From contig JAKLFA010000002.1 in the NCBI GenBank assembly GCA_022711395.1, positions 451,864-515,863 on the forward strand: DNA of 64,000 nt, written 5' to 3'. The translations under genes and the position numbers were made by a program. Positions 1,091 to 44,172 of the stretch are shown piece by piece. The number at the start of each line of letters is the position of its first letter. The first letter of the stretch is position 1. The DNA comes from Candidatus Omnitrophota bacterium. GTDB taxonomy: Bacteria; Omnitrophota; Gorgyraeia; Zapsychrales; JANLHA01. Under the pieces are notes generated by a model, which made no database searches, was not told the origin of the DNA, and worked only from the letters and a program-made list of their open reading frames with translations.

Positions 1091-1999
1091 ATGTCAAAAA
1101 CAGCATTTATTTTTCCGGGGCAGGGCGCCCAATACGTCGGGATGGGCAAAGATCTTTACGAAACGTTCGAAACAGCCAAACAGATCATTGACCAGGCTGA
1201 TCATATTTTGGGAAACGGGCTTAAAGGCGTGATGTTCGAAGGCCCCGAAGAAAAACTCACACAGACCTCATACTGCCAGCCGGCGATCCTCTCGGTGAGC
1301 TATGCGGCAATGACCGTTTATCTGCAGAAATATCCGCAAAGCGCCCCCTCCTTCGTGGCGGGCTTAAGCCTGGGAGAATATTCGGCGCTCGCGGCGAGCG
1401 GCGCGCTTGAGTTCAGCGATACGATCAGGCTCGTCGAGCGGCGCGGCGCCTTTATGAACGAGGCCGCCCAGCTTAAAAAGGGCGCCATGGCCGCTGTGAT
1501 CGGGATGGAACCCCAGGCGATCAAGACAGTCTGCGACGGCTGCGGGGCCGAGGTTGCTAATTTTAACGCGCCGGACCAGACCGTCATCACCGGCGAAGCG
1601 GAGAAGGTCGCGGCCGCTTCCGCGAAGCTCACGGAAGCCGGCGCCAAACGGGTCATCCCCCTTTCGGTCAGCGGAGCGTTCCACTCCTCCCTGATGCAGC
1701 CGGCAGCGGACCGCTTCCAATCGGTCCTGGCAGAAACCCATTTTAAAACCGCGAAGGTCCCTTTGGTCTCTAACGTCGATGCCTCCCCCTGCACGGACCC
1801 GCAACAGATGCGCATCAAGCTGGAAAAACAGATCGTTTCTTCCGTTCAATGGATCAAGACGATCGAATTCATGGCCGGCCAAGGTGTAACAAAATTTATC
1901 GAGATCGGACCGGGAAAAGTCCTCAAAGGCCTCATCCGTAAGATCAACAAAGACCTTGAGGTCATTAATATAGAGAAGGCGGAAGACTTGCTCAAATAA
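1091..1999 (+). CDS. fabD: Malonyl-CoA:ACP transacylase
   Basis: FIFPGQGAQYVGMG and GLSLGEYSALAASG (GHSLGE nucleophile elbow) motifs. AAAGGA SD 9 nt before the ATG at 1091 (the track's TTG at 1085 is probably too far upstream). Confidence 0.9.
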   Translation: MSKTAFIFPGQGAQYVGMGKDLYETFETAKQIIDQADHILGNGLKGVMFEGPEEKLTQTSYCQPAILSVSYAAMTVYLQKYPQSAPSFVAGLSLGEYSALAASGALEFSDTIRLVERRGAFMNEAAQLKKGAMAAVIGMEPQAIKTVCDGCGAEVANFNAPDQTVITGEAEKVAAASAKLTEAGAKRVIPLSVSGAFHSSLMQPAADRFQSVLAETHFKTAKVPLVSNVDASPCTDPQQMRIKLEKQIVSSVQWIKTIEFMAGQGVTKFIEIGPGKVLKGLIRKINKDLEVINIEKAEDLLK

Positions 2000-2017
2000 C
2001 CGACACGAGGATCGACC

Positions 2018-2575
2018 ATGCTGATCGGAAAAAAAGTCCATGAGTTGCGCAAAGCCCGAAAGATGAGCCTGACCGAGCTCGCTGAAAAGACCGGTATCCA
2101 GATCGCGACCTTAAGCCGCATCGAGCACATGAAAATGACCGGCACCCTTCAGTCCCACATGCTGATCGCAAAAGCGTTAGGGATCGAGCTGACCGACCTC
2201 TACCGCGACCTGCCGGGCGCTTCGGCTTTCTCTGAGGCGGAACCCGCTGATGATACTCCCGAGACCGAACGTTTCACCTACAATGACAAGGCCTCCTATG
2301 AGATCCTGGCCAACAATATCCTTTCCAAAAAAATGATGCCCGTGATGCTCAAGATCGAACCCGGCGGGGAGACCCACACGGAACAAAACCAGCCAAGCTC
2401 GGAACGGTTTGTCCTTGTTCTTAACGGAGCCATTGAACTTGTTTTGAAAGATAAAACGATCACATTAAGAAAGAACCACTCGCTGTATTTTGACGCGTCG
2501 TTCCCCCATTCGTTCAAAAACACTGGGGCTGAAACCGCGCGGGTGCTCTCGGTGGCGACACCGGTCACGCTTTAA
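2018..2575 (+). CDS. XRE-family HTH transcriptional regulator with C-terminal cupin domain
   Basis: N-terminal 'LRKARKMSLTELAEKTGIQIATLSRIE' HTH_3 motif and a C-terminal cupin-like beta-rich region. GAGGA SD precedes the ATG. Confidence 0.75.
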   Translation: MLIGKKVHELRKARKMSLTELAEKTGIQIATLSRIEHMKMTGTLQSHMLIAKALGIELTDLYRDLPGASAFSEAEPADDTPETERFTYNDKASYEILANNILSKKMMPVMLKIEPGGETHTEQNQPSSERFVLVLNGAIELVLKDKTITLRKNHSLYFDASFPHSFKNTGAETARVLSVATPVTL

Positions 2576-2590
2576 ATGAAAGGATCTGTC

Positions 2591-2947
2591 ATGACCAAAA
2601 TACTGATCTGTGATGATGAATTGGGAGTGCGCGAATCATTAAAGTTGATCCTGGGGGATTTCTATCCCCTGATCGTGGTGGATAACGGCGAGGCCGCCCT
2701 GGAAGTCCTGAAGAACACGCCTTCGATCAGCCTTGTTTTTATGGATATCAAAATGCCCAAGACCCCGGGGCTTGACGTCCTGGCGAAGATCAAACAACTT
2801 CACCCTCATGTGAAAGTGGTGATCGTTTCCGGCTACAACTCGGTGGAGACCGCCCAGGAGGCCAGCAAGCTGGGCGCTGACGGCTATATCGTTAAGCCCT
2901 TTGACTCAAAAGACGTGCTGGAAAGAGCAAGGAAATATATAAAATAA
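2591..2947 (+). CDS. Single-domain response regulator receiver (CheY-like)
   Basis: 'KILICDDE...LVFMDIKMP...VVIVSGY...GADGYIVKPF' REC signature. AAAGGA SD precedes the ATG at 2591 (the track starts at 2576). Confidence 0.8.
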   Translation: MTKILICDDELGVRESLKLILGDFYPLIVVDNGEAALEVLKNTPSISLVFMDIKMPKTPGLDVLAKIKQLHPHVKVVIVSGYNSVETAQEASKLGADGYIVKPFDSKDVLERARKYIK

Positions 2948-2950
2948 CAT

Positions 2951-4558
2951 ATGGTTATGAACTTAAATCCATTCGCGATTTCAAACCTCATTACAATTGC
3001 CTGTTCGCTCCCCATCGCGGTAATTATTTTTTTATCAAACGAAAAATCGAAACCAGTCTTATACTTCGGCCTCCACTCCTTTTCGATCTTCTGGTGGGGC
3101 TTATTTGCTTTTTTGTCATCGACAGCACCTGATGGATCATCCGCACTAACTCTGCTAAAAGCCGCCTATGCAGGAGTGTTATTTATACCCATCTTTTTTC
3201 TACATTCAATAATCCAAGTATACAACTTTTGGAACAAAATTCTTCTTTGGCTTGGCTATACACAGGCCTCTGTTTTTCTTTTTCTTACAATCAATAATGT
3301 TCTGTTTACACACATTATATCGTCTTTTAATGGCTACTATTACTGTCCAACAAATATTTTTTATCTAATTTCATTTATAATATGGCTCGCTTTTGCAAGC
3401 ATTGCCTTAGTGAAGCTTGTAAGCAATGTTCTCATACCTTACAATCCAAAAGAGTTCGCATACATTCTTGCTGCCATAATAGCCTATTTGAGTGCGGTAA
3501 CAAACTTTCTTCCCACTCTTGGGTTAGAAATTTTTCCTTGGGGGAATTTCTTAATCGGTCCTGGCAATATAATTATGGCCTATTGGATTTTAAAATATCA
3601 ATCTATGAGTTACCGAATTGTGATTCAAAAAAGCCTCATTTATACCTTGTTGATATCAATTACCACCATTGCTTACCTAATCACTGTAATTTTTCTTGAA
3701 AGAATCTCTTCATCAATTCTAAATTATACATCCTTGACTATTACAATTCTTACTGCGTTTATAATCGGTCTTTGTTTTCTCCCGCTAAAAGAAATCCTTC
3801 AAAAATTTATCGATAAATCTATCTTAACCGGAACACCAGCGGAACTGGCCGATCAAAACCGTATCCTAAAGGAAGAAGCAGCCAGAGCGCAGCGGCTCGA
3901 GGCGGTTTCCATCCTTGCCAGCGGGCTGGCCCATGAGATCCGAAATCCTTTGACCGCTATAAAGACGTTCGCCGAATATCTTCCGGAAAAAATGAACGAC
4001 CCGAAATTCCTGAAGCAATTTTCCACGATCGTGGGTCAGGAATCGGAGCGCATCAACACCCTGGTCCAGCAACTTCTGGATTTTGCCAAGCCTTCTGCCC
4101 CGGCCTTTCAAAAGTGCGATATCCGAAAGATCATCAACGAAACACTGGATTTTCTAAGCAGCCGCTTCATTCAATCGCACATCACCCTCAACAATTATGT
4201 TTCAAAAACCACCCCGGTCTGGCTGCGGATCGATCCGAATCAAGTCCGCCAGGCCTTTCTCAACATTTTCATCAATGCGATCGAGGCCATGCCGGACGGC
4301 GGCAGCTTGACGATCCAGGATGAATTCGCTGAAAACTCATCCTACCGGATCGCCATTTCCGATACCGGCCACGGAATAAACGACGACGACCTCAAGCACC
4401 TGTTCAACCCGTTCTACAGCAAAAAAGACGGCGGGACCGGGCTGGGGCTATCGATCACGCATAACATCATTAAAGAACACCAAGGCAGGATCCTTGTGGC
4501 AAGCGTTCCGGGGAAAGGGACAACATTTACGATCGAACTGCCCAAAACCATAGCGTAA
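2951..4558 (+). CDS. Sensor histidine kinase with N-terminal multi-TM (HisKA_7TM-like) domain
   Basis: About 270 aa of TM helices, then HisKA 'LASGLAHEIRNPLTAI' and HATPase_c 'GTGLGLSITHNIIKEHQGRILVASVPGKGTTFTIELP'. Confidence 0.85.
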   Translation: MVMNLNPFAISNLITIACSLPIAVIIFLSNEKSKPVLYFGLHSFSIFWWGLFAFLSSTAPDGSSALTLLKAAYAGVLFIPIFFLHSIIQVYNFWNKILLWLGYTQASVFLFLTINNVLFTHIISSFNGYYYCPTNIFYLISFIIWLAFASIALVKLVSNVLIPYNPKEFAYILAAIIAYLSAVTNFLPTLGLEIFPWGNFLIGPGNIIMAYWILKYQSMSYRIVIQKSLIYTLLISITTIAYLITVIFLERISSSILNYTSLTITILTAFIIGLCFLPLKEILQKFIDKSILTGTPAELADQNRILKEEAARAQRLEAVSILASGLAHEIRNPLTAIKTFAEYLPEKMNDPKFLKQFSTIVGQESERINTLVQQLLDFAKPSAPAFQKCDIRKIINETLDFLSSRFIQSHITLNNYVSKTTPVWLRIDPNQVRQAFLNIFINAIEAMPDGGSLTIQDEFAENSSYRIAISDTGHGINDDDLKHLFNPFYSKKDGGTGLGLSITHNIIKEHQGRILVASVPGKGTTFTIELPKTIA

Positions 4559-4577
4559 AAAATCTTCGCTTTACGCG
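4552..4577. terminator. Weak putative bidirectional hairpin between convergent genes (GCGTAAA...TTTACGC)
   Basis: 7-bp AT-rich inverted repeat spanning the HK stop codon, followed by a T-rich tract. Low stability. Confidence 0.25.
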
Positions 4578-4583: not shown

Positions 4584-5831
4584 TTATTCTTCTCTTTTTA
4601 TGTCTTCGCGCTTAACGATCTCAACGATCCCTCCGGCCTTAAAGACGCATTCCAACGCGTCCACCACTTCCGGATGGAACTGCGTTTCCCGGTTACGGAC
4701 GATCTCCTCCATCGCCTGCTGTGGAGTTCGGGACGGCCGGTATGGCCGTTGAGTGACGATCGAATCGAAGGTGTCCGCGACCGCGATGATCGCGGCAATG
4801 ATCGGGATCTCTTCCCCCTTCAACCCGTCGGGGTAGCCCTTTCCGTCATGACGCTCGTGATGATATCGGATCCCGGCCATGCTGCGCTCAAGTTCTGAAA
4901 GCGGCTTTAAGATCGCGACCCCGTCGACCGGATGGCGCTTGACCAGCGCGTATTCTTCAGGCGTCAGGCGCCCGGGCTTGTTCAGGATCGATTCAGGGAC
5001 ACCGATCTTTCCGATATCATGCAGGGTCCCTGCGACATAAAGGTCTTCCATGAACTTTTCATCAAAATGGTATTTCCCGCTTTTGTTCATTTCCTGGGCG
5101 ATCGCCAGGGCATAGCGGGTAACCCCTTCGCTGTGGCCCCTGGTATACTCATCCTTGACTTCGATGGCCGCGCCCAAAGACATGGTCATGCGCAAGAACA
5201 GGTCGTGATTATGCTCGGCCTGGCTCCTGAGCTGGTCAAACAGCTGCGCGTTGCGAAGGGCCATGGCCGTGTCCGAGGCCAGCGCGCCGAAAAAGCTCAG
5301 TTCCTCGGAATCGAATTTTTCACTGCTTTGTTTTTCACCCAATAGAAGCACCGCCAGCAGTTTATCATGATAGATCGCCGGCACACAGGCGACAACGCCT
5401 AAAAGGTCCATCTGGTCGCTGACCTGATGCAGGATCTCTCGCACCTGAGGATCGCATCCATGGCCGTTCAAGAGCCCTTCCTGCCAGATCATTTTGTTCA
5501 TATCATGCCAGAGGATCGCGTGCTTGCTTTGAAAGAGCGGGCGGAACTTCACGTCGCTGAATACTTTTATGATCGGGCTTGAATGGTTAAAGCGCGCGAA
5601 CCCCTGCGGAATGCGATGCCCGGTCTGGCCTTTTGAGATCGCCAAAAGATACTCATTCTTTTCCGGCGAATAAATGATCATGCCGGCGTGCCTGAGCTTA
5701 AGCCGATAGACGATCATGCGGATGATCATCTTGATCAGAAGCTGCGGGTCATGGACCAGGATCATCCCGCGGCTGGCAGCCTCGAGCGCTTCTTTATAGT
5801 CCAGTTTCTTTGAAAAATTCGGTGTTTTCAA
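4584..5831 (-). CDS. HD-GYP c-di-GMP phosphodiesterase with N-terminal GAF-like domain
   Basis: 'HDIGKIGVPESILNKPGRLTPEEYALVKRHP' and 'HHERHDGKGYPDGL' HD-GYP signature. Confidence 0.85.
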   Translation of the reverse strand: MKTPNFSKKLDYKEALEAASRGMILVHDPQLLIKMIIRMIVYRLKLRHAGMIIYSPEKNEYLLAISKGQTGHRIPQGFARFNHSSPIIKVFSDVKFRPLFQSKHAILWHDMNKMIWQEGLLNGHGCDPQVREILHQVSDQMDLLGVVACVPAIYHDKLLAVLLLGEKQSSEKFDSEELSFFGALASDTAMALRNAQLFDQLRSQAEHNHDLFLRMTMSLGAAIEVKDEYTRGHSEGVTRYALAIAQEMNKSGKYHFDEKFMEDLYVAGTLHDIGKIGVPESILNKPGRLTPEEYALVKRHPVDGVAILKPLSELERSMAGIRYHHERHDGKGYPDGLKGEEIPIIAAIIAVADTFDSIVTQRPYRPSRTPQQAMEEIVRNRETQFHPEVVDALECVFKAGGIVEIVKREDIKREE

Positions 5832-5838: not shown

Positions 5839-6219
5839 TCAAGCCCCCTGCTTTAGCTCTTTCATCACGATCTTCTGCAGCTCCTCAAGGACGAGCGGCT
5901 TGTGAATAAAACCGATGATCCCCAGGCTCCTGGCCTGGTTGATCGTCTCCTCATCTTCAATGCCGCTGACCATGATGACCTTGGTCGGGTCGCCTTCTCC
6001 CCGCATTTTCTGCAGAAACTCCACCCCGGTCATTTCCTCCATGCGGACATCCAAAAGGATCAGGTCAGGGCGCTCTTCCTTCAGAATGTCCAGCGCCTCG
6101 CTGCCGCCGGACGCCGTGAAGACCTGGATCCCCCTTTTTTTAAAATAATTACGGGCGAACTCCCGGATGTCGATCTCATCATCCACGATCAATAACTTGG
6201 ACATTTTCATCCTTTCCAT
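5839..6219 (-). CDS. Single-domain response regulator receiver
   Basis: 'LLIVDDEIDIRE...LILLDVRMEEMTGVEF...VIMVSG...FIHKP' REC motifs. Sits immediately downstream of the HK, with its start codon abutting the HK stop. Confidence 0.8.
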   Translation of the reverse strand: MERMKMSKLLIVDDEIDIREFARNYFKKRGIQVFTASGGSEALDILKEERPDLILLDVRMEEMTGVEFLQKMRGEGDPTKVIMVSGIEDEETINQARSLGIIGFIHKPLVLEELQKIVMKELKQGA

Positions 6220-8439
6220 TTACGCTTGACGCTCTACGCTTTGTATCATATCCTGGTCCAGACCTTCCACCGTCGGAAGAGTAATATAAACACGCGTCCC
6301 TTTGCCGTATTCCGATTTATAAAAAACCTTTCCCTTATGGTTCTCTTCGATCAATTTCTGGATCACATAAAGGCCAAGCCCGGTCCCTTTTTTACTGGAA
6401 AGCTTGGTCGTAAAAAACGGCGTGAAGATCTTTTCCTGGTCTTCAGCCCTGATCCCGATCCCGTTATCTTCCAGCACAATGCGCATGCTGCCCATGCGCG
6501 ACCGTTCAGCCTTGATGGTGATCCGGGGCTCATACCCCTCCTCCTTGAGGTCGCTTTTACGCTGCATCATGGCGTCATAAGCGTTATCGATCATATTAAA
6601 GAACACTTCCTGAAGCTGGGTGAAATTACCGTGGATCTTAGGAAGCCCCGGCTCAAAATCCCTGACGATCGACATTTCGCCGGTCTTGATCTTGAACTGA
6701 GCCATCGTGACCGCTTCATCAATGAGCTCATCGAGCTCAACCTCCCCGAACTGTTCATCGCTCTTGCGGCTGTATTTCAACAGTCCGCGCACGACCTCCC
6801 CGCCCTGGGAAACATTCTCCTGGATGCGGGTCAGGGCGTGCTCAATATCGACCATCATCTCCTTGACCTCATCGGTCATCTTCAGTTTCTTGTTCAGCTG
6901 GATCGTATCCAGAGCGTCTCCGGCGATAAATCCCAACGCGTGCAGTCGGTTATTGATCTGGTGCGACAGGCCATCAGCCATAATACCGATCGTGGCCATC
7001 TTCTCCGCCCTGAAAAGCTGTTCATGGGTCGCCCGCATGTCCTTATAGAACTGCGCGTTCTCGATCGCCAGCCCCGCCTGGTTTGACAGGATCATAAAAA
7101 CCGCCAGATCATCCTGGCTGTAAAGCTCTCCGCTGACCTTCTTGCCCATGACCATCACCGCGATCAGTTTTTCGTCAATAAAACACGGCACGATCAACTC
7201 CGCGTGAAGCGCGGACATCTGTTCTTCCAACTCCTGCAGCTTAAGATCTTTGAAATCCTGCGCCCGCTGCTGCACCTCTGAAAATACGATCGGAGCGCGG
7301 ATCTTTTTAAGCGCCTTAAGGACGCGAGAGTCGGACGCAATAGTTTGAGGGACATCGGTCCTTTCGTTGCGGAACCGGGACGCCTCTAATTTATACTCTT
7401 TTGATTTTCGGTCGCTTAAATAAATAAAGCTGTGCTCAATGCGCACTGAACGGGTCACCACCCGCACGATCATATCCAGCAGTTTATCCATGTCCTTGAT
7501 CCGGCCCATGCCGGTCGAGGCCTGACGCAGTGTGCTCTGATACCGCCTCTGATCCTGAAACAGCTTCTCTTCCGCCCGGCGCTGGATCGCCAAATAAATA
7601 AACGGCCCTGCCGTTGCCATGACTGTCAAAAGGACCATCGGGGAAAGCCACCACAGTTCACCAAAATGCATCCTCAACCATTCCTGACAGCCGATTGCAA
7701 AAGCGTAGGGGATTCCTAAGATTAGGGAATAAACTGCAACAAAAATTGATGTCCTCGTTATAACCAACGAAACATTCATCAGGCGATATTTAATGACTGA
7801 ATAAAAAGTCATCCCTGTAAATGCAATCATAAATAGAAAACCCATCGGATATAAATCAAATCCATAATTTGGCACAAAATCAACTGCCGCAAATGACCCC
7901 ACGATCGTCCCCCAAAAAATATATCTCGATCGAATAATATGCATATAATGCTTTGTCGAAAAAAAAGATGCCCTAAGAAGAGCAACCGAAATAAGCGTAA
8001 ATAAAAGTGAAAAATAGGATAAAAAGGATATGTGAGGTATTAAATTAACTCTAGGATAATCCCCCCATACGAAAGAATTTAATCCTTTGATTAAAAAGTC
8101 TTGTTTATAGAAATTAAAAAAAACGAAGAAACATGGAAATGGAAGGACCCAATAAAAAAGTCTAGATAAAAACTTGTCTTCCAAAAATTCGCCCGTATAT
8201 AACAACCAAATAATTGGAATAAATGCAATTCCAATATAGCCAACTTTAAACATAAATATCTTAAATATTTCTCCTTCCACAAGAAAAGCAACTGAATAGC
8301 TAAAAAGCCAAACAAATATACAAAAACAAAATAAAAAAAAGATGCGATTCAAACTAACTCGTCTATTTCGAATAAAAATAGTTAAGCCAAAAACAAAAAC
8401 AACAAGTGAGGAAAAAAATAAGGAAAAAGCATGCATCAT
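6220..8439 (-). CDS. Sensor histidine kinase: N-terminal 7TM domain, GAF, HisKA, HATPase_c
   Basis: AT-rich N-terminal multi-TM region paralogous to that of 2951..4558. HisKA 'GLSHQINNRLHAL'. HATPase 'GTGLGLYVIQKLIEENHKGKVFYKSEYGKGTRVYITLP'. Confidence 0.85.
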   Translation of the reverse strand: MMHAFSLFFSSLVVFVFGLTIFIRNRRVSLNRIFFLFCFCIFVWLFSYSVAFLVEGEIFKIFMFKVGYIGIAFIPIIWLLYTGEFLEDKFLSRLFYWVLPFPCFFVFFNFYKQDFLIKGLNSFVWGDYPRVNLIPHISFLSYFSLLFTLISVALLRASFFSTKHYMHIIRSRYIFWGTIVGSFAAVDFVPNYGFDLYPMGFLFMIAFTGMTFYSVIKYRLMNVSLVITRTSIFVAVYSLILGIPYAFAIGCQEWLRMHFGELWWLSPMVLLTVMATAGPFIYLAIQRRAEEKLFQDQRRYQSTLRQASTGMGRIKDMDKLLDMIVRVVTRSVRIEHSFIYLSDRKSKEYKLEASRFRNERTDVPQTIASDSRVLKALKKIRAPIVFSEVQQRAQDFKDLKLQELEEQMSALHAELIVPCFIDEKLIAVMVMGKKVSGELYSQDDLAVFMILSNQAGLAIENAQFYKDMRATHEQLFRAEKMATIGIMADGLSHQINNRLHALGFIAGDALDTIQLNKKLKMTDEVKEMMVDIEHALTRIQENVSQGGEVVRGLLKYSRKSDEQFGEVELDELIDEAVTMAQFKIKTGEMSIVRDFEPGLPKIHGNFTQLQEVFFNMIDNAYDAMMQRKSDLKEEGYEPRITIKAERSRMGSMRIVLEDNGIGIRAEDQEKIFTPFFTTKLSSKKGTGLGLYVIQKLIEENHKGKVFYKSEYGKGTRVYITLPTVEGLDQDMIQSVERQA

Positions 8440-8452: not shown

Positions 8453-9511
8453 TTATAGATATTTAACTGCAGGAAATATACGATATTTAAGAATCAAATC
8501 AGCCAAACCTTCTAAATTTTCAGAACTAATTTCACCTCTTCCTAATGAAACCAAATCAAAACGCTTTGAAAAAGCCAATATAATAGCTTCTGTCAAACAA
8601 CCATAAATTGCATTTTGCGGAAAAAAGGATTTCCATTTGCTGTCAAAAATTTTTTTATAAAATGGCAACTCAGAGGTTCCTCCAAAGAATAATGTCTTCT
8701 TGGCAGGAAAACTGGTCAATCCACTCTTCTCAAACGAAACATTTGGGGGCATGCCAATATCACAAATTATTGATCCCTCTTTAAAGTCTGAATATCCCAA
8801 CAATGCATCAACCGAGCTCGCAGCCGCAATTATTAAATCTGCATCCGAAACCGCTTCCCTTGCATCAGTAAAACAAACAAACTGATCAAACCCTTCCGCC
8901 TTTAGTTTTTTACAAATTTCTGAATCATCAGAGATTGTCCTTGAGCAAAGTCTTAAAAACTTTGCCTTCTTAGAATAAATTCTTGCACAAATAGACCCGA
9001 TGTCTCCGGTGGCCCCAATTATGGCAACCGAAAGCTCTCGCACTTTTTTACCATGGCGCCCCGCTTCTTTCTCTAATGCCATTGATGCCAATACCGCAGT
9101 CGTCGCATTCCCTGAAGTTATTGGAATAGATGTCATTTTTGAAACATCCCTCCCACCGTTGGTAACAATTGATGTAAATCCCGCCAACGTTATTATGTTG
9201 ACATTCTCCTGTTCAAAAATTTTAAAACAATCTATTATTTTTTTAATCGTATTTTCTTTTTCAATTAACATTTGTCGAGGAAAAATAGGGAGCAATACCC
9301 CAAGAATTTCGATCTCATAATTATTATGGATCAAATTACAAACATGCATTATCTTGTGAGGAGGGATTCTAACAATGTTGTGCGTTATAAAAGAATCATC
9401 CAGAAATTTAAGAATCCAATTCCCAAAAAAAGTGTATATTTTGGGGAATAAATCCCGAAAACTTTCAGTGTTTAGAGGGTGAATTATAATCCCGATTTTT
9501 ACTCTTTCCAT
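8453..9511 (-). CDS. Acyl-ACP reductase (AAR)-family NAD(P)-dependent reductase homologue
   Basis: By-eye collinear alignment with cyanobacterial AAR: GIIIHPLNTE~GLIGHLTSLE, LAGFTSIV~LGGFTSII, TSGNATTAVL~TTGNTHTAYV, IIGATGDIGS~VVGATGDIGS, YGCLTEAII~FACFAEAML (catalytic Cys retained). GC about 38% versus about 60% in neighbours. Confidence 0.6.
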   Translation of the reverse strand: MERVKIGIIIHPLNTESFRDLFPKIYTFFGNWILKFLDDSFITHNIVRIPPHKIMHVCNLIHNNYEIEILGVLLPIFPRQMLIEKENTIKKIIDCFKIFEQENVNIITLAGFTSIVTNGGRDVSKMTSIPITSGNATTAVLASMALEKEAGRHGKKVRELSVAIIGATGDIGSICARIYSKKAKFLRLCSRTISDDSEICKKLKAEGFDQFVCFTDAREAVSDADLIIAAASSVDALLGYSDFKEGSIICDIGMPPNVSFEKSGLTSFPAKKTLFFGGTSELPFYKKIFDSKWKSFFPQNAIYGCLTEAIILAFSKRFDLVSLGRGEISSENLEGLADLILKYRIFPAVKYL

Positions 9512-10728
9512 TTTTTTAACACCAAAGAGAAATTGTTCCCCCCAAACGCAAGGGAATTATTCAATACAACTCTAACCCTATGTTTCCTAAACGTATTCGG
9601 CACACAATCAATATCACACTCCGGGTCCGGGGTCTCATAATTGATCGTTGGCGGGATCTTTTGATCCTTGATCGCCAAGCAGCAGGCTATGGATTCTAAT
9701 GCCGATGCCGCGCCCATCGTATGCCCCAGCATGGATTTGATCGAACTGACCGGGATGTTTTTCAACCGCTCTCCAAAGACAGCTTTAAAGACTTCGCATT
9801 CTGTCTTGTCATTTTCAGGCGTTCCTGTCCCGTGGGCATTAATATAATCGACATCCTCCGGACTCAAACCCGCATCGTTTAAGGCCTTTCTGATAGCTTT
9901 GATCCCACCCTTTGCTTGAGGCTGAGTCAAGTGAAAAGCATCCGATGCCGCTCCACATCCCAAAATTTCCGCATAGATCAGCGCCCCACGCTTACGGGCA
10001 TGTTCAAGCTCTTCCAAAACAAGAATTCCCGCTCCTTCTCCTGGGATCATGCCTTGACGGTTCTTGTCAAAAGGCCTGCACTTTTGCGAATCGATAGCAA
10101 CCAAACGATGAAAACCTGTAAAAGCAATACGAGATAAAGGGTCAACCCCCCCCGCAAACATGCAATTAGTAAAACCCGTTCGTATCATATCTGTCGCTCT
10201 ACCGACAGCAAAATTCCCCGCAGCACAAGCATTCGCGAAAAGATGGCTATTATTTTTAATATCAAAGACATGTGCAAAATTTGAACTTATTGAATTTGCA
10301 GGATAAGTTAGTGGTAAAATTTTTTCCAATGTATCACATCCTATAGTCGTATCAATTTCTACGCATTTTTCAATAACCTGCCCTTCCCCCATGGTAGTTC
10401 CCACGCAAAGACCCGCATTAGTTTCTTTTAAATCAGCCTTAGCAAGCATCGAATCTTTTAAAGCCAACCCCCCCGCAACAATCAACATTTGAGAGGCTCG
10501 TCCAAAATGCTTGAAATTATTTTTTGGGCAAAATATTTTAAAATCAAAATCTCTAACTTGGCCAACCAATTTCCTATCATATTTTGAAGAATCCACATAA
10601 TCAACTTCCGATATCCCGCTCTTCCCTGCCAGCAAATTTTTCCAAAATTCCTGCCAGCCGATGCCGATCGAGGACACAACCCCCAGGCCGGTGACCACCA
10701 CTCTGCGTTTTACATTGTTATTTCGCAT
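9499..10728 (-). CDS. Beta-ketoacyl-ACP synthase I/II-like (FabF/FabB family)
   Basis: VVVTGLGVVS, active-site 'ANACAAGN' Cys, 'HGTGT' and 'GHTMGAAS' His residues, 'AFGGNNFS'. Start is more likely MRNNNVKRRVVV (10728) than the track's 10791, which would read through the GTGTC repeat. Confidence 0.8.
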   Translation of the reverse strand: MRNNNVKRRVVVTGLGVVSSIGIGWQEFWKNLLAGKSGISEVDYVDSSKYDRKLVGQVRDFDFKIFCPKNNFKHFGRASQMLIVAGGLALKDSMLAKADLKETNAGLCVGTTMGEGQVIEKCVEIDTTIGCDTLEKILPLTYPANSISSNFAHVFDIKNNSHLFANACAAGNFAVGRATDMIRTGFTNCMFAGGVDPLSRIAFTGFHRLVAIDSQKCRPFDKNRQGMIPGEGAGILVLEELEHARKRGALIYAEILGCGAASDAFHLTQPQAKGGIKAIRKALNDAGLSPEDVDYINAHGTGTPENDKTECEVFKAVFGERLKNIPVSSIKSMLGHTMGAASALESIACCLAIKDQKIPPTINYETPDPECDIDCVPNTFRKHRVRVVLNNSLAFGGNNFSLVLKKWKE

Positions 10729-10783
10729 TTCCAATCTCTTGTTTCGTATTATACCTTTTACTCCGTGTGTCCTGTGTCCTGTG

Positions 10784-11239
10784 TCATGCATCTTGCCTTA
10801 AAAACGAATAAAACACCTGCGCCTGCCCCAATTTCTCATTTTGCCCGCGCGTCATCTCGATATCCGCATACCCGCCGCTCGCCATCACCCGCCCCTGTAA
10901 AACTTCCATCCTCAGCACATCCCCCACTTCCGCAGGAAAGTTGATATCACATTTGATCTTGCCCAGCACGATCGTGCGCCGCTCCGGATCACCCCGTTCG
11001 ATCAAAGTCCGATACACAAAAAAAGACGCCGCCTGGGCCGCGGCCTCGATCATCAGCGTCGGCGGAAAAATGACCGAACCATCCGGCTGGCGCACAAGAT
11101 AGGGATCATTCGTCGTCACGTTTCTGACAGCGGTCAAACCTTTCCCAGGAACAAAATCCACAATAGAATCAATGAACAGAAAAGGAGGCTTTTGCGGCAG
11201 AACTGCGCGGATATCATCCTGGTCAAACACCGTGTTCAT
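10784..11239 (-). CDS. FabZ-like hotdog-fold protein with catalytic His replaced by Gln
   Basis: Gap-free alignment to E. coli FabZ: LPHRFPFLLVD...[26 protein letters not shown] versus LPQKPPFLFID...NDPYLVRQPDGSVIFPPTLMIEAAAQ. Both His positions (PHR and GHF) are Gln; the Glu is conserved. AAGGAGAG SD before the ATG at 11239. Confidence 0.7.
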   Translation of the reverse strand: MNTVFDQDDIRAVLPQKPPFLFIDSIVDFVPGKGLTAVRNVTTNDPYLVRQPDGSVIFPPTLMIEAAAQAASFFVYRTLIERGDPERRTIVLGKIKCDINFPAEVGDVLRMEVLQGRVMASGGYADIEMTRGQNEKLGQAQVFYSFLRQDA

Positions 11240-11367
11240 CAAACCGCTCTCCTTTGAGCAGTGTTCCCAAGACATATAAGTTATTTAAATAGAAATAGAT
11301 ATAGATATACTAGACGAACTTATTATAGAAGTGATTTTTATGACGGTCAAACAGAAAGAAGAAAAAA

Positions 11368-12342
11368 CTACCACTTGATCAGATTGGCGGCCGTGACAAG
11401 CCCCGAGCCGAAGGTGACCATAACGACCACGCTTCCGGGCTTGATCATCCCCTCTTCCACCGCTTCATAAAGAGCGATCGCCACCGCGGCCGCTGAGGTA
11501 TTACCATATTTCTGGATGTTGATGAAAAACTTATCTTTTGAAACGCCGGCCCGCTTCGCCACCGCGGAAATGATCCGGTCATTGGCCTGATGCGGAACAA
11601 CACAGTCCACATCTTCCAGTTTAAGGCCGGCTTTTTCAACGACCAGATCCACCGCGTCCGCCATCGAAGTGACCGCGACCTTAAACAGCTCCTGCCCCTG
11701 CATCACAATGGCTGGCTTCTGGATCTTCGTGTTGAACTCCAACTGGGCGGGCTCTTCGGTCTTGACATACAGAAGCTCATGGAACTCCCCGGCTGAATGA
11801 AGATATTCCGAAAGGATCCCCCTGCCCTCTTCAACCGGAGCAAGGATGCAGGCCCCGGCGCCGTCCCCAAAAAGCACGCAGGTGGCGCGGTCGCTCCAAT
11901 CAAGCAGGTTGGTGGCCTTCTCAGCGGCGATGACCAGGGCGGTCTTGAACATCCCCGATGTCAAATATTGTTTAGCCGTCGTGATCGCGCATAAAAACCC
12001 CGAACAGGCTGCGCTGACATCGAACGCGGCCGCGTTCTTCGCGCCGATGGCGCTCTGGACTTTGCAGGCAACAGCGGGAAAATTGGAATCCGTGCTGGCG
12101 GTCGCCACAATGATCAGCTCGATCCCCTCAGCAGGAACCGGCGAACCGTCCAAGGCGCTTTTCGCGGCCTCAATGGCCATATCCGTTGTGGTTTCATCCC
12201 GACGGGCCAGGCGGCGCTCCTTGATCCCGGTCCGTGTCGTGATCCACTCATCGGATGTTTCAACGACCTTTTCCAGGTCATGGTTGGTCACGATCCGTTC
12301 AGGCACGTATTTTCCGACAGCAACGATCCCTATATTTTTCAT
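11368..12342 (-). CDS. fabH: Beta-ketoacyl-ACP synthase III
   Basis: N-terminal 'MKNIGIVAVGKYVPERIVTNHDLEKVVETSDEWITTRTGIKER', then 'AACSGF' Cys and C-terminal 'HQANDRII...GNTSAAAV'. Confidence 0.9.
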   Translation of the reverse strand: MKNIGIVAVGKYVPERIVTNHDLEKVVETSDEWITTRTGIKERRLARRDETTTDMAIEAAKSALDGSPVPAEGIELIIVATASTDSNFPAVACKVQSAIGAKNAAAFDVSAACSGFLCAITTAKQYLTSGMFKTALVIAAEKATNLLDWSDRATCVLFGDGAGACILAPVEEGRGILSEYLHSAGEFHELLYVKTEEPAQLEFNTKIQKPAIVMQGQELFKVAVTSMADAVDLVVEKAGLKLEDVDCVVPHQANDRIISAVAKRAGVSKDKFFINIQKYGNTSAAAVAIALYEAVEEGMIKPGSVVVMVTFGSGLVTAANLIKW

Positions 12343-13343
12343 GCAAAACGTCCGATCTCTTTGCGCATATGTTCAATGACGTTATGTTCAACCTCGCGGC
12401 GTGCGGCGCGGATGGCGTTCTTGATCGCCTTGGCATCCGACCGCCCGTGGCTGATCATGACGATCCCGTCCACGCCCAAAAGCGGCGCCCCGCCGTATTC
12501 CGAATAATCCGCGTAACGCCTGATCTGCTTCAGGCGGGATTTCATCAGCCAGGCGCCGAGCATCGCCACCGGGCTTTTTTTGAGCTCCCGTTTTAAAAGC
12601 GCGATCGCTGATTCCGCCAGGCTTTCTGAAACCTTCAAGACCACATTTCCCACGAACCCGTCGCAGACGATGCAATCGCAATCCCCGCGGTAGATCCCGC
12701 TCCCCTCGACATTGCCGACAAAATTCTGCGGCAAACGCTCCGATAAAATCCGGTGGATCTCCTTAACAAAATCCGTCCCCTTCGTCTCTTCCTCGCCTAC
12801 ATTGAGCAAACCGACGCTGGGGTTCTCGATCCCCAACATGTCCCTGGCGTAAACATGCGCCAGCAGTGCCGACTGGACCAGATGCTGCGGTTTGGGGTCC
12901 GTATTGGCCCCCACGTCCAGCACAAGAGCGAAGCCTTTCAGCGTCGGCAAGACCGCACCGATCGCCGGACGTTCGACCCCCTGCATCATTCCCAAAAAGA
13001 CCGTCGCTGCCGCCACCACCGCGCCCGTGTTTCCCGCTGAAATGAAGCCCCTGCAATCCGGATCCGCCTTTAACAGATTGATCCCCACCGAAACGGAAGA
13101 ATTGCGTTTCTTGCGGATCGTTACCGTCGCCGGATCGTCCATCGCCACCACGTCCGGAGCATCCACAATACTGACCAACTCTTTAGGATAATCATACTGG
13201 CTCAGCTCCTGAAGGATCCTTTCCTTGGGCCCGGTCAGGACAACGCTGATCCCAAATTCCTTGACGGCCTGGATCGTCCCGTCCACAACAGCCTGCGGCG
13301 CATGATCCCCACCCATGGCATCAACAACGATTTTCATAAACAC
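12339..13343 (-). CDS. plsX: Phosphate acyltransferase PlsX
   Basis: 'KIVVDAMGGDHAPQAVV' N-terminus and overall PlsX collinearity. Overlaps the fabH start by 4 nt. True start may be MKIVVD at 13337. Confidence 0.9.
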   Translation of the reverse strand: MFMKIVVDAMGGDHAPQAVVDGTIQAVKEFGISVVLTGPKERILQELSQYDYPKELVSIVDAPDVVAMDDPATVTIRKKRNSSVSVGINLLKADPDCRGFISAGNTGAVVAAATVFLGMMQGVERPAIGAVLPTLKGFALVLDVGANTDPKPQHLVQSALLAHVYARDMLGIENPSVGLLNVGEEETKGTDFVKEIHRILSERLPQNFVGNVEGSGIYRGDCDCIVCDGFVGNVVLKVSESLAESAIALLKRELKKSPVAMLGAWLMKSRLKQIRRYADYSEYGGAPLLGVDGIVMISHGRSDAKAIKNAIRAARREVEHNVIEHMRKEIGRFA

Positions 13344-24186: not shown

Positions 24187-24304
24187 TCCCGGCAACGTTC
24201 TACTCTCCCAAAGCCTTGCGACTTAAGTACCATCGACCTCAGCGGGCTTAACTGCCGTGTTCGGAATGGGAACGGGTGTTTCCCCGCTAGCATAATCGCC
24301 GAGA
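24187..24304 (-). rRNA. rrf: 5S ribosomal RNA
   Basis: Reverse complement contains conserved 5S segments 'CCGAACACGGCAGTTAAGCCCGCTG' and '...GGGAGAGTAGAACGTTGCCGGG'. Confidence 0.8.
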
Positions 24305-24374
24305 AAATCTAAATTTCCAGTTATGTGATAATTGATGTATGACCCGTAAGCATACTAGACATGATGTATTTATG

Positions 24375-27335
<2,961 letters not shown>

Positions 27336-27483
27336 TACTATGACTAGTAAACCTACGAAAATTGCATACACCAATTATCACATAACTGTCAAAGAACGAT
27401 TTAACGCCAAAATGGCGCAACAGGAACAGAATTCCCGTTTAAATCTATCTTGAATTTTATTGCCAAACCATAACACCTAAATT

Positions 27484-27559
27484 TGGTGGAGCTGAGGAGG
27501 ATCGAACTCCTGACCCTCTGCTTGCAAAGCAGATGCTCTCCCAGCTGAGCTACAGCCCC
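27484..27559 (-). tRNA. tRNA-Ala (anticodon UGC)
   Basis: Reverse complement GGGGCTGTAGCTCAGCTGGGAGAGCATCTGCTTTGCAAGCAGAGGGTCAGGAGTTCGATCCTCCTCAGCTCCACCA. Cloverleaf with encoded CCA. Confidence 0.9.
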
Positions 27560-27604
27560 ACATGAAAGTCACTATACACAACTTTTTGTGCTTCGTGTCT
27601 TAAA

Positions 27605-27681
27605 TGGTGGGCCCGAGAGGATTCGAACCGCTGACCCCCGCGTTATCAGCACGGTGCTCTAACCACCTGAGCTACGGGCCC
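27605..27681 (-). tRNA. tRNA-Ile (anticodon GAU)
   Basis: Reverse complement GGGCCCGTAGCTCAGGTGGTTAGAGCACCGTGCTGATAACGCGGGGGTCAGCGGTTCGAATCCTCTCGGGCCCACCA. Confidence 0.9.
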
Positions 27682-27867
27682 AAAACCCAGCAAATTCGAT
27701 CCTTCGATCTCATTAAATTTAGAAAGCCAAGCTCTTTGAAAGAGCTTTTCCTTTGACCACAAGTTCGTGTGAGAACGAACTCATTGCCGTCTTTCCCTCG
27801 GGCAGGGTTCCTAGCATCATTATGATTGCCTATTCAATGAATAGTTTCTCGAAAACGAGAAAATAGA

Positions 27868-29452
<1,585 letters not shown>

Positions 29453-33215: not shown

Positions 33216-34187
33216 TTACCAGAACGTCTTTTGGTTCAGATAGGAACACACATACTCAAAAACACCGTCCTCCAGCGTCGTAAAAGGCCGGTCATAACCG
33301 ACTGAACGGATCTTTTCCATGGGGGCTTCTGTAAAATACTGATACCTCGGACGAAGGTATGGCGGCATTTCGACATAATCGATCCTCAATGGCCTTCCCA
33401 GCGCAGAAAAAAGCGCCGCGGCAACATCATTCCAACTGCGCGCCCGGCCGGTTCCGATGTTATAGATCCCGGAAAGATCGGAATGATCCAAAAAAAACAA
33501 CGTCATGTCGACCGCGTCCTTGACATAGATAAAATCCCTTTTCTGCTCCCCGTCGGCATAATCCGGATGGTACGACTTAAAAAGAGAGATCCGTCCTTCT
33601 GACACAACACGCGGATACGCCTTATTGACCACGCTGCGCATATCCCCCTTGTGATATTCATTCGGTCCGTAAACATTGAAGAACTTCAATCCCACGATGC
33701 GGTCCAAAACCCCCTGCTCAAGCGCCCAAAGATCAAATTTATGTTTCGATTCGCCATAAAAATTCAAAGGTCTATATCGACCAAGCATCGCTTCATCATC
33801 ACTATAGCCCTGTAACCCATCCCCATACGTCGAGGCTGAACTCGCATAAATAAAACGCACATCATGCCGCAAACACCATCGGGCCACATCCCGAGTATAT
33901 TCAAAATTGTTCTTTTGATAATAGGCTTCATCAAAACCCATCGTTGCGCTGCAAGCCCCCATGTGAATGACCGTATCCACCGAGGGATCGATCGAATCCG
34001 AAAGGACCTTCTTCAAGAACTCCTCTTTATCCTCATAAGAACGGTAACGTTTTGATTTGAGATTCTCGGCCTTACCATCACCCGCTGCCACTTCATCAAC
34101 GACGATCAAATCCTCACGACCCCGCTCATTCAATTTCGCAAGAATACAACTTCCGATGAATCCCGCCCCACCTGTCACAACGATCAC
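33216..34187 (-). CDS. hldD: ADP-L-glycero-D-manno-heptose 6-epimerase
   Basis: 'MIVVTGGAGFIGS' Rossmann, 'ASSASTYG' and YxxxK SDR-extended motifs. C-terminus typical of HldD/RfaD. Confidence 0.8.
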   Translation of the reverse strand: MIVVTGGAGFIGSCILAKLNERGREDLIVVDEVAAGDGKAENLKSKRYRSYEDKEEFLKKVLSDSIDPSVDTVIHMGACSATMGFDEAYYQKNNFEYTRDVARWCLRHDVRFIYASSASTYGDGLQGYSDDEAMLGRYRPLNFYGESKHKFDLWALEQGVLDRIVGLKFFNVYGPNEYHKGDMRSVVNKAYPRVVSEGRISLFKSYHPDYADGEQKRDFIYVKDAVDMTLFFLDHSDLSGIYNIGTGRARSWNDVAAALFSALGRPLRIDYVEMPPYLRPRYQYFTEAPMEKIRSVGYDRPFTTLEDGVFEYVCSYLNQKTFW

Positions 34188-36322
34188 TCCCCCGCCCCCT
34201 TCTGATTTTTATTCTTTCCCGTGGACAGCGCCATAAGACAACGCGCGAGCTTACCACCCATCTCTGTTGCCAAAATGTTGAAATTCCGCCCTTCGTCCAA
34301 AAAAGACACCTTTTCGAGCGAAAAAACAGCCGCCACACTGGAATCCTTTTGATAAAGCATTTTACCGTGCGCAGAGATCACGCGCTTTGGTTTTTTTAAT
34401 AAAAAACGCTTCCATAATTTCCCCTGCCGAAGCTCATCAATCTGCCCCATAACGATCAAATCCGCATGAGCGGCCGAAGCGTCTCCCAAAACCTCTAGAC
34501 GGCCGTCACGTTCAAATTCTTGGGCCATGCCCTTTACGATCGACAGTGCTGTTCGGCTGGTCGTTTCATCTGAAAAAACACGCGGCCCCGCTGAGAACGG
34601 AACGATCACAATGCTCGTAGAGCCTTCCACAAGCTCCGGACGTAGCACATCACACGCCCCGCAACCGCGTTCAGAATCCAAGCACTCTTGCGCCCATCCA
34701 ACTTGCGCTGCAAATATCACGGCCACAGCAACGCAGCATAATGCGAACCCTTTTCTGACCATCACAACATCCTTTTTTTGGCACGCGGCCCTGCCATTCT
34801 CCTCTGTCAACGTCCTTAAATCCGCGATCATCTCCTCAGTCAGATCCTTTGTTCTAAACCGCCACCCCCAATTGCCGCTGGAAGATCCAGGCACATTCAT
34901 GCGCCCTTCAACTCCAAGATTTAAAATATCCTGAACTGGCACAAGGGCAAGTGCGGCCCGGGACCGAAAAGCGACCCGTGTCATCTCCCATGCCACATCC
35001 TCCGCCCGGACATCCCTGCCCAAATACTGCCGAAGGTGATCGTGTTCTTCTTGTGAAGCATCCCGCTCAAACCATCCACGGGTAGTGTTGTTATCATGTG
35101 TTCCGGTATAGACAACGCAATTTTCGTCATAATTCTCAGGAATGTAGGGATGCGTCGACATCTCTCCACTGAAGGCGAATTGAAGGACCTTCATCCCGGG
35201 GATCCTAAACGTTTTCATCAACTCCTTGACGCCCTCCGTGATGATCCCCAGGTCTTCCGCAATGAGAGGCAGACCCGCGAACTGCTGTGAAATCGCGGAA
35301 AGAAAATCGGCCTTCGGCCCTTCCCCCCAAGATCCGTTCACCGCCGTCATTTCCTTGGCAGGAATCTGCCAAAAAGATTCAAAACCGCGAAAATGGTCTA
35401 TTCTCACGATATCAAAAAGATCGAACTGGCGTTTCAGCCGTTTGAGCCACCACTTAAACCCATCCGCCTTCAGACGCTTCCAATCATAAACGGGATTCCC
35501 CCACCGCTGCCCCGTCGAACTGAAATAATCAGGCGGAACACCCGCGACAAATTTCGGCCGATGCTTGGCATCCAGAACAAAAAATTTCTGGTTCGCCCAG
35601 ACATCAACACTGTCATCATTCACATAGATCGGGATATCGCCGATCAATTCAAGCCCCAGACCTTTGCAGTATGAACGCAAAACTTTCCACTGCCGCTGAA
35701 AAAGGTATTGCAGGAATTTATGCAGACCGATCGCGTCCTTCAGTTTCTGCCGGGCGGCCCGCAGCGCGTCCTTCTCCCGTCCGGCGATCTCGTCAGGCCA
35801 TTCATCCCAACGCTTCTGCGGAAATTCACTTTTCAAGGCCATGAACAAGGCGTAATCATCAAGCCAAAAAGAATCCTCCTGGCAAAAAAGGTCGTAGTCG
35901 TTCTGCAGATCCTGCCTGTCCTTGAACGCCGTATACGCCTTTCGCATCACGGTCATTTTAAAATCACGGACCGCCGAGAACTCAACCCGGTCCTGAGCAA
36001 AAGCTCTCGGAAGTTTTAAATCATCCGGAGTCAAAAGCCCCATCGCAGAGACCTCATCAAGACTGATAAAAAGAGGATTGCATGCAAAAGCTGAAGGGCT
36101 GCTGTAAGGCGACTCGCCGTAGATCCCATCCGTCGGGTTTAAAGGCAGCATCTGCCAATACCTCTGCCTGCCCGCCTTCAAGACATCGGCGATCCAGAAC
36201 GCCCCAGGCCCTAGGTCGCCGATCCCGTATTCCGAAGGAAGAGAGGAAAGATGAACCAAAAGACCGCTTCCTCGTTTTAACATAATTCGAATCCTTTCAT
36301 AAGAATATCCGTTTTCCGTCAA
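34184..36322 (-). CDS. malQ: 4-alpha-glucanotransferase (GH77 amylomaltase) with unusual ~190-aa C-terminal extension containing a signal-peptide-like segment
   Basis: GH77 N-terminal ~510 aa ('GSGLLVHLSSLPS...GIGDLG', 'IAEDLG'), then in-frame 'MVRKGFALCCVAVAVIFAAQVGWAQEC...' to the stop at 34184. Confidence 0.75.
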   Translation of the reverse strand: MTENGYSYERIRIMLKRGSGLLVHLSSLPSEYGIGDLGPGAFWIADVLKAGRQRYWQMLPLNPTDGIYGESPYSSPSAFACNPLFISLDEVSAMGLLTPDDLKLPRAFAQDRVEFSAVRDFKMTVMRKAYTAFKDRQDLQNDYDLFCQEDSFWLDDYALFMALKSEFPQKRWDEWPDEIAGREKDALRAARQKLKDAIGLHKFLQYLFQRQWKVLRSYCKGLGLELIGDIPIYVNDDSVDVWANQKFFVLDAKHRPKFVAGVPPDYFSSTGQRWGNPVYDWKRLKADGFKWWLKRLKRQFDLFDIVRIDHFRGFESFWQIPAKEMTAVNGSWGEGPKADFLSAISQQFAGLPLIAEDLGIITEGVKELMKTFRIPGMKVLQFAFSGEMSTHPYIPENYDENCVVYTGTHDNNTTRGWFERDASQEEHDHLRQYLGRDVRAEDVAWEMTRVAFRSRAALALVPVQDILNLGVEGRMNVPGSSSGNWGWRFRTKDLTEEMIADLRTLTEENGRAACQKKDVVMVRKGFALCCVAVAVIFAAQVGWAQECLDSERGCGACDVLRPELVEGSTSIVIVPFSAGPRVFSDETTSRTALSIVKGMAQEFERDGRLEVLGDASAAHADLIVMGQIDELRQGKLWKRFLLKKPKRVISAHGKMLYQKDSSVAAVFSLEKVSFLDEGRNFNILATEMGGKLARCLMALSTGKNKNQKGAGE

Positions 36323-38766: not shown

Positions 38767-38845
38767 GAGCCGTCCCGCGTCTGCCAGTCAAAACACGGTA
38801 AAAGCTCAGTTTTTCTCCTGACCACTGTTGATTAGTGCCGCCGTT

Positions 38846-44158: not shown

Positions 44159-44172
44159 GGATCCCCCCTCCT

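Follow-up and report, generated by a model that had tools for sequence, protein, structure and literature searches.

Acyl-ACP reductase (AAR; ACP, acyl carrier protein) has so far been viewed as half of the alkane pathway found in cyanobacteria, and the relatives known outside the cyanobacteria are for the most part domains of larger proteins, joined to an aminotransferase or to a nonribosomal peptide synthetase (NRPS) of an antibiotic pathway. The stretch of DNA analysed here, 64,000 nucleotides from a Candidatus Omnitrophota genome (contig JAKLFA010000002.1 of assembly GCA_022711395.1, positions 451,864 to 515,863 of the forward strand; hereafter the window, numbered from its first letter), carries a gene for a stand-alone homologue of AAR. 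Omnitrophota are mostly anaerobes, and to our knowledge the phylum has neither isolates nor any lipid biochemistry. The AAR-like gene, encoding a putative acyl-thioester reductase, occupies positions 8453..9511 of the minus strand as an intact open reading frame (ORF) of 352 aa with an ATG start; a preliminary description of the locus had reported the same ORF without assigning it a strand. Database matches place the closest relatives of the window proteins in Candidatus Omnitrophota metagenome-assembled genomes (MAGs).

The gene has been called differently by the Joint Genome Institute (JGI; contig Ga0116241_10000030), where it starts at Met55 and encodes an N-terminally shortened protein of 298 aa from which part of the N-terminal domain is missing. 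The 352-aa reading is correct, because homologues of 350-375 aa align with the protein from residues 1-5, His11 is nearly invariant in the homologue alignment, and the structure model gives residues 1-20 a pLDDT (predicted local distance difference test) of more than 90 and places them in a strand of that domain.

The minus-strand genes around it run in the order rsmD, coaD, yceD, rpmF, plsX (12339-13343) and fabH (11368-12342), the last two being housekeeping genes, followed by a 92-nt gap and then by six tightly packed genes. The first of the six encodes a FabZ-like hotdog protein, here called FabZ' (10784..11275), and overlaps by 8 nt with the gene for a FabF-type beta-ketoacyl-ACP synthase II (KAS II; 9499..10791, with the JGI start at 10728). 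The FabF and AAR-like genes overlap by 13 nt, not by the 2 nt reported earlier, and the ATG of the AAR-like gene lies within the FabF-end sequence ..AAATGGAAAGAGTAA. A 13-nt gap then separates the AAR-like stop from the start of a sensor histidine kinase gene (6220..8439), whose product combines a HisKA_7TM N-terminus with multiple transmembrane (TM) helices and GAF, DHp and HATPase_c domains. The gene for a stand-alone REC response regulator (5839..6219) follows with a 0-nt gap and, after 7 nt, that for a predicted HD-GYP-type cyclic di-GMP (c-di-GMP) phosphodiesterase (HD_5; 4584..5831) with intact HDIGK and HHERHDGKGYP motifs. The best promoter-like site of the region, TTGACC-17-TATAAT (11322..11350, minus strand, 11/12 matches), lies inside the gap between fabH and the FabZ' gene, and a terminator-like hairpin with an 8-pair stem (4553..4576, minus strand), directly after the HD-GYP stop, likely marks the end of the six-gene unit; both sites are consensus matches only. 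The preliminary description had correctly placed the AAR-like gene after fabH-plsX, in the same direction as the FabZ-like and FabF genes. Its "three-gene lipid module", however, is not the unit that is conserved: the operon continues uninterrupted into the 7TM kinase, response regulator and HD-GYP genes, and the linkage to these is what the clade has kept.

FabF has an intact Cys-His-His set, passes the KAS II subfamily cutoff of PRK07314 (406.6 bits against 387 bits) and looks like an ordinary elongating KAS II. FabZ' scores under the cutoffs of the FabZ models, and its catalytic His is replaced by Gln, the catalytic Glu being retained; the two positions were located by way of His54 and Glu68 of E. 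coli FabZ, whose sequence served for this purpose only. The catalytic His is lost (to Gln, Pro, Ala, Ser or Gly) and the Glu kept in the FabZ' of all seven plsX-fabH-fabD-linked operons, namely the window and loci L004, L016, L019, L092, L094 and L098 of the comparison sets described below, and FabZ is canonical in the sibling clusters that contain ACP and ketoreductase (KR) genes. FabZ' is probably not an active dehydratase; the gene previously described as a FabZ paralogue is indeed FabZ-like, but it has lost the catalytic His. The kinase is predicted to have about nine TM helices connected by short loops and no periplasmic domain. Adjoining the HD-GYP gene, and also kept beside the cluster in relatives, is a convergent plus-strand operon (1091..4558) of fabD (1091-1999), an HTH-cupin regulator (2018-2575), a response regulator (2576-2947) and a histidine kinase (2951-4558). 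Genes for a CrtI-like desaturase, FAR, an MGDG (monogalactosyldiacylglycerol)-synthase-like protein and FadL were looked for in the window and none was found. Further c-di-GMP genes of the window (REC-EAL, GGDEF) lie at 42347-43519 and 53737-54777.

Homology, fold and active site of the AAR-like protein

A phmmer search against the PDB aligned residues 86-347 of the AAR-like protein with residues 75-336 of AAR (6JZU/6JZQ; E 2.5e-12) and also matched PigE (4PPM; E 2.7e-14). The PigE model of NCBIfam was the top sequence-model match (105.6 bits, E 2.4e-30), the AAR model TIGR04058 gave 70.5 bits (E 1.5e-19), and Pfam recognised the Rossmann part only, as PF01488 Shikimate_DH (E 3e-8). An AlphaFold2 (AF2) model computed from a 48-sequence alignment reached a pLDDT of 94 and a pTM (predicted template modelling score) of 0.92. 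When this model was compared with known structures by Foldseek, AAR chains ranked first (E 5e-23), with template modelling scores of 0.75-0.80 across the full length, and the three-domain AAR fold, including the N-terminal domain, was present. The fold together with the invariant Cys, TxGN and GxTGxIG of the AAR/PigE-N/KecF/TAD superfamily (TAD, terminal amidation domain; COG5322-type Cys-dependent thioester enzymes) are all found in the protein. It is a true AAR homologue, far beyond chance, without being orthologous to the cyanobacterial enzyme, as its sequence relationships indicate. The alignment with AAR drawn by eye in the preliminary description is supported by the profile search and by Foldseek, the N-terminal domain aligning structurally, and the hand-aligned segments agree with the multiple alignment (H11 with AAR H7, TSGN132-135 with TTGN128-131, and GATGDIG166-172 with 162-168).

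Shikimate dehydrogenase and glutamyl-tRNA reductase were rejected as assignments, since neither gave a full-length fold match together with a family-model score above cutoff, and the protein does not fall into an unrelated Rossmann family without alignment of the N-terminal domain. Automated names on relatives vary, from COG5322 and K14330 at JGI to "fatty aldehyde-generating acyl-ACP reductase", "predicted amino acid dehydrogenase", "shikimate dehydrogenase" and hypothetical protein. After clustering at 50%, the family comprises 69 representatives at E <= 1e-30 and 740 at E <= 1e-10.

The reference sequence of Synechococcus elongatus AAR matches all residue numbers given in the AAR structure paper and groups with the cyanobacterial sequences. 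Residue numbering follows that paper (PMC7089970) and was mapped on an 83-sequence alignment, in which conservation was compared across Omnitrophota (22), Bacteroidota (37) and cyanobacterial (18) sequences. In both the HMMER pairwise alignment and the 83-sequence alignment, AAR C294 corresponds to C305 (YGCL), the equivalence that had been proposed by eye; C305 is invariant in the three clades and in 48 of 48 sequences, and lies where helix 304-315 of the AF2 model begins. Also invariant in the three clades are H11 (AAR H7), T132, G134 and N135 (T128, G130 and N131), the identical GATGDIG at 166-172 (162-168), R191 (R189), S232 (S224), D251 (D244), P255 (P248) and E308 (E297). R325 (R314) is Arg in Omnitrophota and cyanobacteria and mostly Lys in Bacteroidota; with R191 it makes up the two of three NADPH 2'-phosphate arginines that are retained. 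The AAR residues at the ADO contact and acyl-tunnel end (ADO, aldehyde-deformylating oxygenase), M21, Y23, Y26 and M279, are F29, N31, L34 and D290 in the AAR-like protein and are variable within the Omnitrophota clade. The position of the invariant Asp2170 of TAD is taken by Ile252 (loop CDIGMP), with Ile or Val throughout the Omnitrophota clade, so that the active site resembles that of AAR, not that of TAD.

Absence of ADO and conserved gene neighbourhood in Omnitrophota

No ADO-like ORF was found in the 64-kb window, in a further 9 kb of the contig to the left of it, or in any of the 22 Omnitrophota-clade loci; lacking ADO is thus a trait of the clade as a whole. The preliminary description had stated that no ADO gene lies within 25 kb on either side; none was found, but the span that can be checked around the AAR-like gene extends 54.5 kb on one side and ~17 kb on the other, including contig beyond the window start (~73 kb in total). 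An ADO-like ORF is present in the fetched flanks of nearly all Bacteroidota loci, most cyanobacterial loci and the Acidobacteriaceae locus L063, and where gene order was inspected it lies directly upstream of the reductase gene. The Omnitrophota clade stands apart in the tree, and the Bacteroidota and cyanobacterial clades group together, on a quick neighbour-joining reconstruction from BLOSUM distances that suits clade separation, not deep branching order. Among the genomes matching the search pattern, only about two dozen species-representative genomes carry the Omnitrophota clade.

The Bacteroidota loci (L027-L060 and L088; for example L049:6072-10955) share a conserved cluster in which genes for a GNAT protein, an ADO-like ferritin, the AAR-like protein, a DUF3419 (BtaA-like) protein, a fatty-acid desaturase and a PAP2 protein occur together. 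This cluster, found in Flavobacteriaceae, Chitinophagaceae and Cytophagales, including the cultured Algoriphagus, Robiginitalea and Flagellimonas, contains an AAR/ADO-type pair outside the cyanobacteria. Its ferritin matches PF11266 and scores 57 bits with TIGR04059, under the cutoff. No paper on the Bacteroidota pair was found in a literature search that included ADO in Bacteroidetes.

Gene order was compared over 22 non-redundant loci of the Omnitrophota AAR-like clade. An orthologue of the HisKA_7TM kinase gene lies downstream on the same strand in 19 of the 22, and in 10 loci it either overlaps the reductase gene or starts within 60 nt of it; a ketosynthase (KS) gene directly adjoins the reductase gene in 14 of the 22. 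Three upstream arrangements occur in the relatives: plsX, fabH, fabD, FabZ', FabF and the AAR-like gene; a chain-length-factor (CLF)-like KS gene (KS'), the AAR-like gene, FabG, ACP, FabZ, FabF, a nitroreductase and a CrtI-family flavoprotein; and KS', FabG, FabZ, FabF, a CrtI-like gene and the AAR-like gene. All of them end with the kinase, the response regulator, sometimes a second response regulator, and the HD-GYP gene. In the CLF-like KS' all catalytic residues are replaced (Cys by Phe or Met, one His by Ser or Asn, the other by Glu); such genes, with a CrtI/CrtISO-family flavoprotein gene alongside, were seen at L005:6748-8001, L013:3728-4969, L016:4977-6224 and other loci, and judged from their gene content these clusters resemble a hybrid of highly reducing type II polyketide synthase (PKS) and fatty acid synthase (FAS). 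In a sister group (L006) the AAR-like domain is fused to an SRPBCC lipid-binding domain and its gene lies beside that for a PlsC-type acyltransferase, and a metagenome contig (L089:5739-10295) carries genes for SRPBCC, AAR-like, ACP and AMP-ligase proteins. These two loci, together with the contexts containing KS, CLF, KR, dehydratase (DH) and ACP genes, place AAR-like proteins near ACP-bound chains. In a Hyphomicrobiales MAG (L068:5465-8891), an AAR-like gene follows one for a thiamine diphosphate (ThDP)-dependent, PigD-like enzyme.

The reciprocal view was obtained by scanning metagenomes with the kinase alignment, keeping the 37 loci with at least 2.5 kb upstream and inspecting a 6-kb flank. 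FAS-type genes lie upstream in 23 of these kinase-anchored loci and an AAR-like gene in 11. In 7 of the 37, the AAR-like gene is replaced by one for a FAR/TR-type reductase of 362-364 aa (PF07993, NAD_binding_4, "male sterility"), and a single locus has both. The displacement is exact at L092, where FabZ' (His-less), FabF, the FAR-type reductase, 7TM kinase, response regulator and HD-GYP genes reproduce the window operon with only the reductase exchanged; displacing reductase genes were located, for instance, at L092:1633-2721 and L109:2859-3953. PF07993 reductases are expected to convert an acyl thioester to an aldehyde or alcohol, but they do so with an extended short-chain dehydrogenase/reductase fold and Tyr/Lys catalysis, with no covalent Cys intermediate, so that the relation to the AAR-like protein is one of analogy, not homology. 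A single operon position is occupied by either of two unrelated families whose chemistry is the same, and this alternation is the strongest computational evidence available that the slot serves the reductive release of an acyl thioester. Genes for an MGDG-synthase-like protein, an LpxL-like acyltransferase and a GT2 protein follow the HD-GYP gene in 12-14 loci (for example L109:9856-12509) and are absent from the window; they hint at a structural glycolipid. A gene for a FadL-type outer-membrane lipid transporter precedes the kinase gene in a few loci (for example L108).

Relation to known enzymes, proposed function and alternatives

The AAR-like protein resembles cyanobacterial AAR (S. elongatus orf1594; PDB 6JZQ/6JZU; TIGR04058; EC 1.2.1.80) in being a stand-alone protein of ~340-350 aa, with the Cys at the equivalent helix start and with GATGDIG, the R189/R314 pocket, TxGN and E297 in common. 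It differs in its ~22% identity and separate clade, in having neither an ADO partner nor conserved ADO-interface residues, and in the setting of its gene, which lies in a fab operon with two-component and HD-GYP genes downstream. The conserved Cys is shared with the PigE N-terminal domain (Cys296), TamH and KecF (COG5322; prodigiosin, tambjamine and koreenceine pathways), which likewise are proposed to release reductively a carrier-bound chain from FAS or type II PKS-like enzymes; KecF moreover has KS heterodimers as partners, as in the relatives' clusters. Whereas those domains are fused to an aldehyde-consuming, pyridoxal phosphate-dependent aminotransferase, the AAR-like protein stands alone, and no aminotransferase gene was found in the operon or the window. 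The TAD of the carmabin NRPS CarI (PDB 9E4S) differs in being a C-terminal NRPS domain that is NAD-specific via an Asp, with a further invariant Asp in its DDSGP loop where the AAR-like protein has Ile. Since AAR-like domains are already known outside the cyanobacteria, in PigE (PMC8341465), in KecF (PMC6498172), whose koreenceine pathway is type II PKS-like, and in TAD (bioRxiv 10.1101/2024.10.28.620694), the protein described here represents a new clade and context, not a new enzyme kind. The ADO-free fatty-aldehyde/alcohol branch suggested in the preliminary description gains independent support from the FAR-type reductase that occupies this slot in sibling loci.

Taken together, these observations make it probable, though well short of certain, that the AAR-like protein is an unfused enzyme of the AAR superfamily that reduces acyl thioesters with NADPH, belonging to an Omnitrophota-specific clade and acting independently of ADO. 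An acyl chain from the adjoining type II FAS (FAS-II) enzymes, most likely as acyl-ACP, would pass to Cys305 to form an acyl-enzyme thioester. NADPH bound on GATGDIG166-172, its 2'-phosphate held by Arg191 and Arg325, would then give a hydride and a fatty aldehyde would leave, as in the ping-pong mechanism described for AAR (PMC7089970). The aldehyde or a derived alcohol would enter a lineage-specific lipid, not an alkane, and most likely a specialised envelope lipid. The AAR-like gene would thus be responsible for reductive release in a variable FAS-II-like cluster, which appears to be coupled, transcriptionally and translationally, to the 7TM kinase, the response regulator and the HD-GYP protein; this kinase module presumably senses either that lipid or the membrane state, and its output would reach c-di-GMP by way of REC and HD-GYP. 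For the product, a place in a structural lipid appears likelier than a role as a signal.

Several results weigh against this assignment. The TIGR04058 score of 70.5 bits does not reach the curated equivalog cutoff of 449.7 bits, HMMER left the N-terminal 85 residues of the protein unaligned, and the third phosphate-pocket arginine of AAR, R193, is Asp195 here, at a position occupied by K, R, D or E across the Omnitrophota clade. ACP, FabG and an aldehyde-consuming enzyme were not found in the window, so that neither the substrate carrier nor the fate of the product is visible there. Neither type of reductase gene lies within the 6-kb flank in 18 of the 37 kinase-anchored loci, so that the kinase is linked to the entire lipid cluster and not to the AAR-like gene alone. 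Finally, the synteny is that of a single phylum and may in part reflect shared ancestry.

We give hardly any credence to an ordinary Rossmann dehydrogenase (shikimate dehydrogenase, glutamyl-tRNA reductase or amino-acid dehydrogenase) with a chance resemblance to AAR: Pfam does offer only Shikimate_DH, and NCBI calls some relatives "shikimate dehydrogenase", but the Foldseek matches to AAR effectively refute it. A genuine cyanobacterial-type AAR of the alkane pathway with its ADO partner encoded elsewhere would account for the shared fold and catalytic residues, and the ~73 kb inspected belong to a genome of at least 516 kb; it is nevertheless highly improbable, given that an ADO-like gene is usual in the cyanobacterial and Bacteroidota flanks and occurs in 0 of the 22 Omnitrophota loci, that the ADO-interface residues are unconserved in this separate clade, that the score is far under the TIGR04058 equivalog cutoff, and that ADO needs O2, whereas anaerobic metabolism (acetogenesis) has been inferred from the genomes of several Omnitrophota lineages (PMC10066038). 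Chemistry of another kind, whether TAD-like or otherwise non-reductive, in which a nucleophile would attack the acyl-enzyme formed on Cys305 (amidation or acyl transfer), or action on a non-fatty thioester (3-oxoacyl or polyketide, as for PigE), appears quite unlikely. The protein is not fused to an NRPS or an aminotransferase, it has NADPH-type arginines and not the NAD-specific Asp of TAD, the Asp2170 position is Ile or Val, and the exchange for a FAR-type reductase at this operon position speaks for reduction.

A more serious contender, which we still consider unlikely, accepts the reduction and differs in the use made of its product: by analogy with the diffusible signal factor (DSF), the aldehyde or alcohol, made by the AAR-like or the FAR-type enzyme, would be a diffusible autoinducer sensed by the co-translated 7TM kinase and relayed through the response regulator and HD-GYP protein to c-di-GMP. 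The DSF/Rpf system (RpfF, RpfC and the REC-HD-GYP protein RpfG) likewise clusters an enzyme that diverts FAS acyl-ACP with a multi-TM kinase and an HD-GYP protein, a likeness of architecture only, and DSF too derives from FAS intermediates. The translational coupling of reductase and kinase (gaps of -17 to +16 nt in 10 loci), the short-looped kinase of ~9 TM helices without a periplasmic domain, the intact HD-GYP motif and the FadL-type transporter upstream of the kinase in some loci (L108) are all consistent with such a circuit. Set against this, RpfF is a crotonase, no enzyme of that type is encoded in the operon, and REC (5839-6219) and HD-GYP (4584-5831), fused in RpfG, are separate proteins here; half of the kinase-anchored loci have no reductase gene nearby; and no ligand for HisKA_7TM is described in the literature searched. 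The relatives' large clusters, with KS, CLF, KR, DH, ACP, CrtI-like desaturase and methyltransferase genes, followed by MGDG-synthase-like and LpxL-like genes, fit a structural lipid better.

A housekeeping role in fatty acid synthesis, as a substitute for FabG or FabI, was also considered and rejected: the Cys/TxGN set is invariant, FabG co-occurs in the relatives' clusters, the reductase is interchangeable with a FAR-type enzyme, and the clade is found in only about two dozen of the species-representative genomes that fitted the search pattern. Acyl-phosphate, which is made by the adjacent PlsX, might be a substrate of the AAR-like enzyme, by analogy with the similar chemistry of ASADH and ArgC; this is speculation.

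No description of stand-alone Omnitrophota AAR homologues or of their linkage to a kinase was found in the literature searched, and the same holds for a HisKA_7TM ligand. The present analysis adds to the AAR superfamily a stand-alone and apparently ADO-independent clade within an Omnitrophota fatty-acid synthesis operon, consistently wired to a sensor kinase and a predicted c-di-GMP phosphodiesterase, and so points to a lipid pathway not described before. If the proposed reductase function is true, Omnitrophota would possess a fatty aldehyde/alcohol route and might by it make ether, alkyl-glycoside or wax-type lipids, which could be used as biomarkers in the environment; the protein would be a new AAR scaffold, independent of O2, on which to base the production of fatty aldehydes and alcohols; and there would be a concrete hypothesis for what the HisKA_7TM sensor domain detects. 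Should the product instead act as a signal, the operon would represent a DSF-like lipid autoinducer/c-di-GMP circuit in a nanobacterial phylum that is uncultured and may depend on hosts, and a first ligand class would be assigned to the HisKA_7TM sensor domain.

Elsewhere on its minus strand the window carries a complete rRNA operon (24187-29452; 16S, two spacer tRNAs, 23S and 5S) and a glycogen-metabolism cluster (34184-47061) with genes for GH77, GH57+DUF3536, branching enzyme and phosphorylase. The contig to the left of window position 1 (L169:1-9680) contains a bAvd/23S_rRNA_IVP gene, a Gmad1-like gene and an SpvB/TcdB/RHS toxin-like gene of more than 2634 aa; bAvd is the accessory protein of diversity-generating retroelements.

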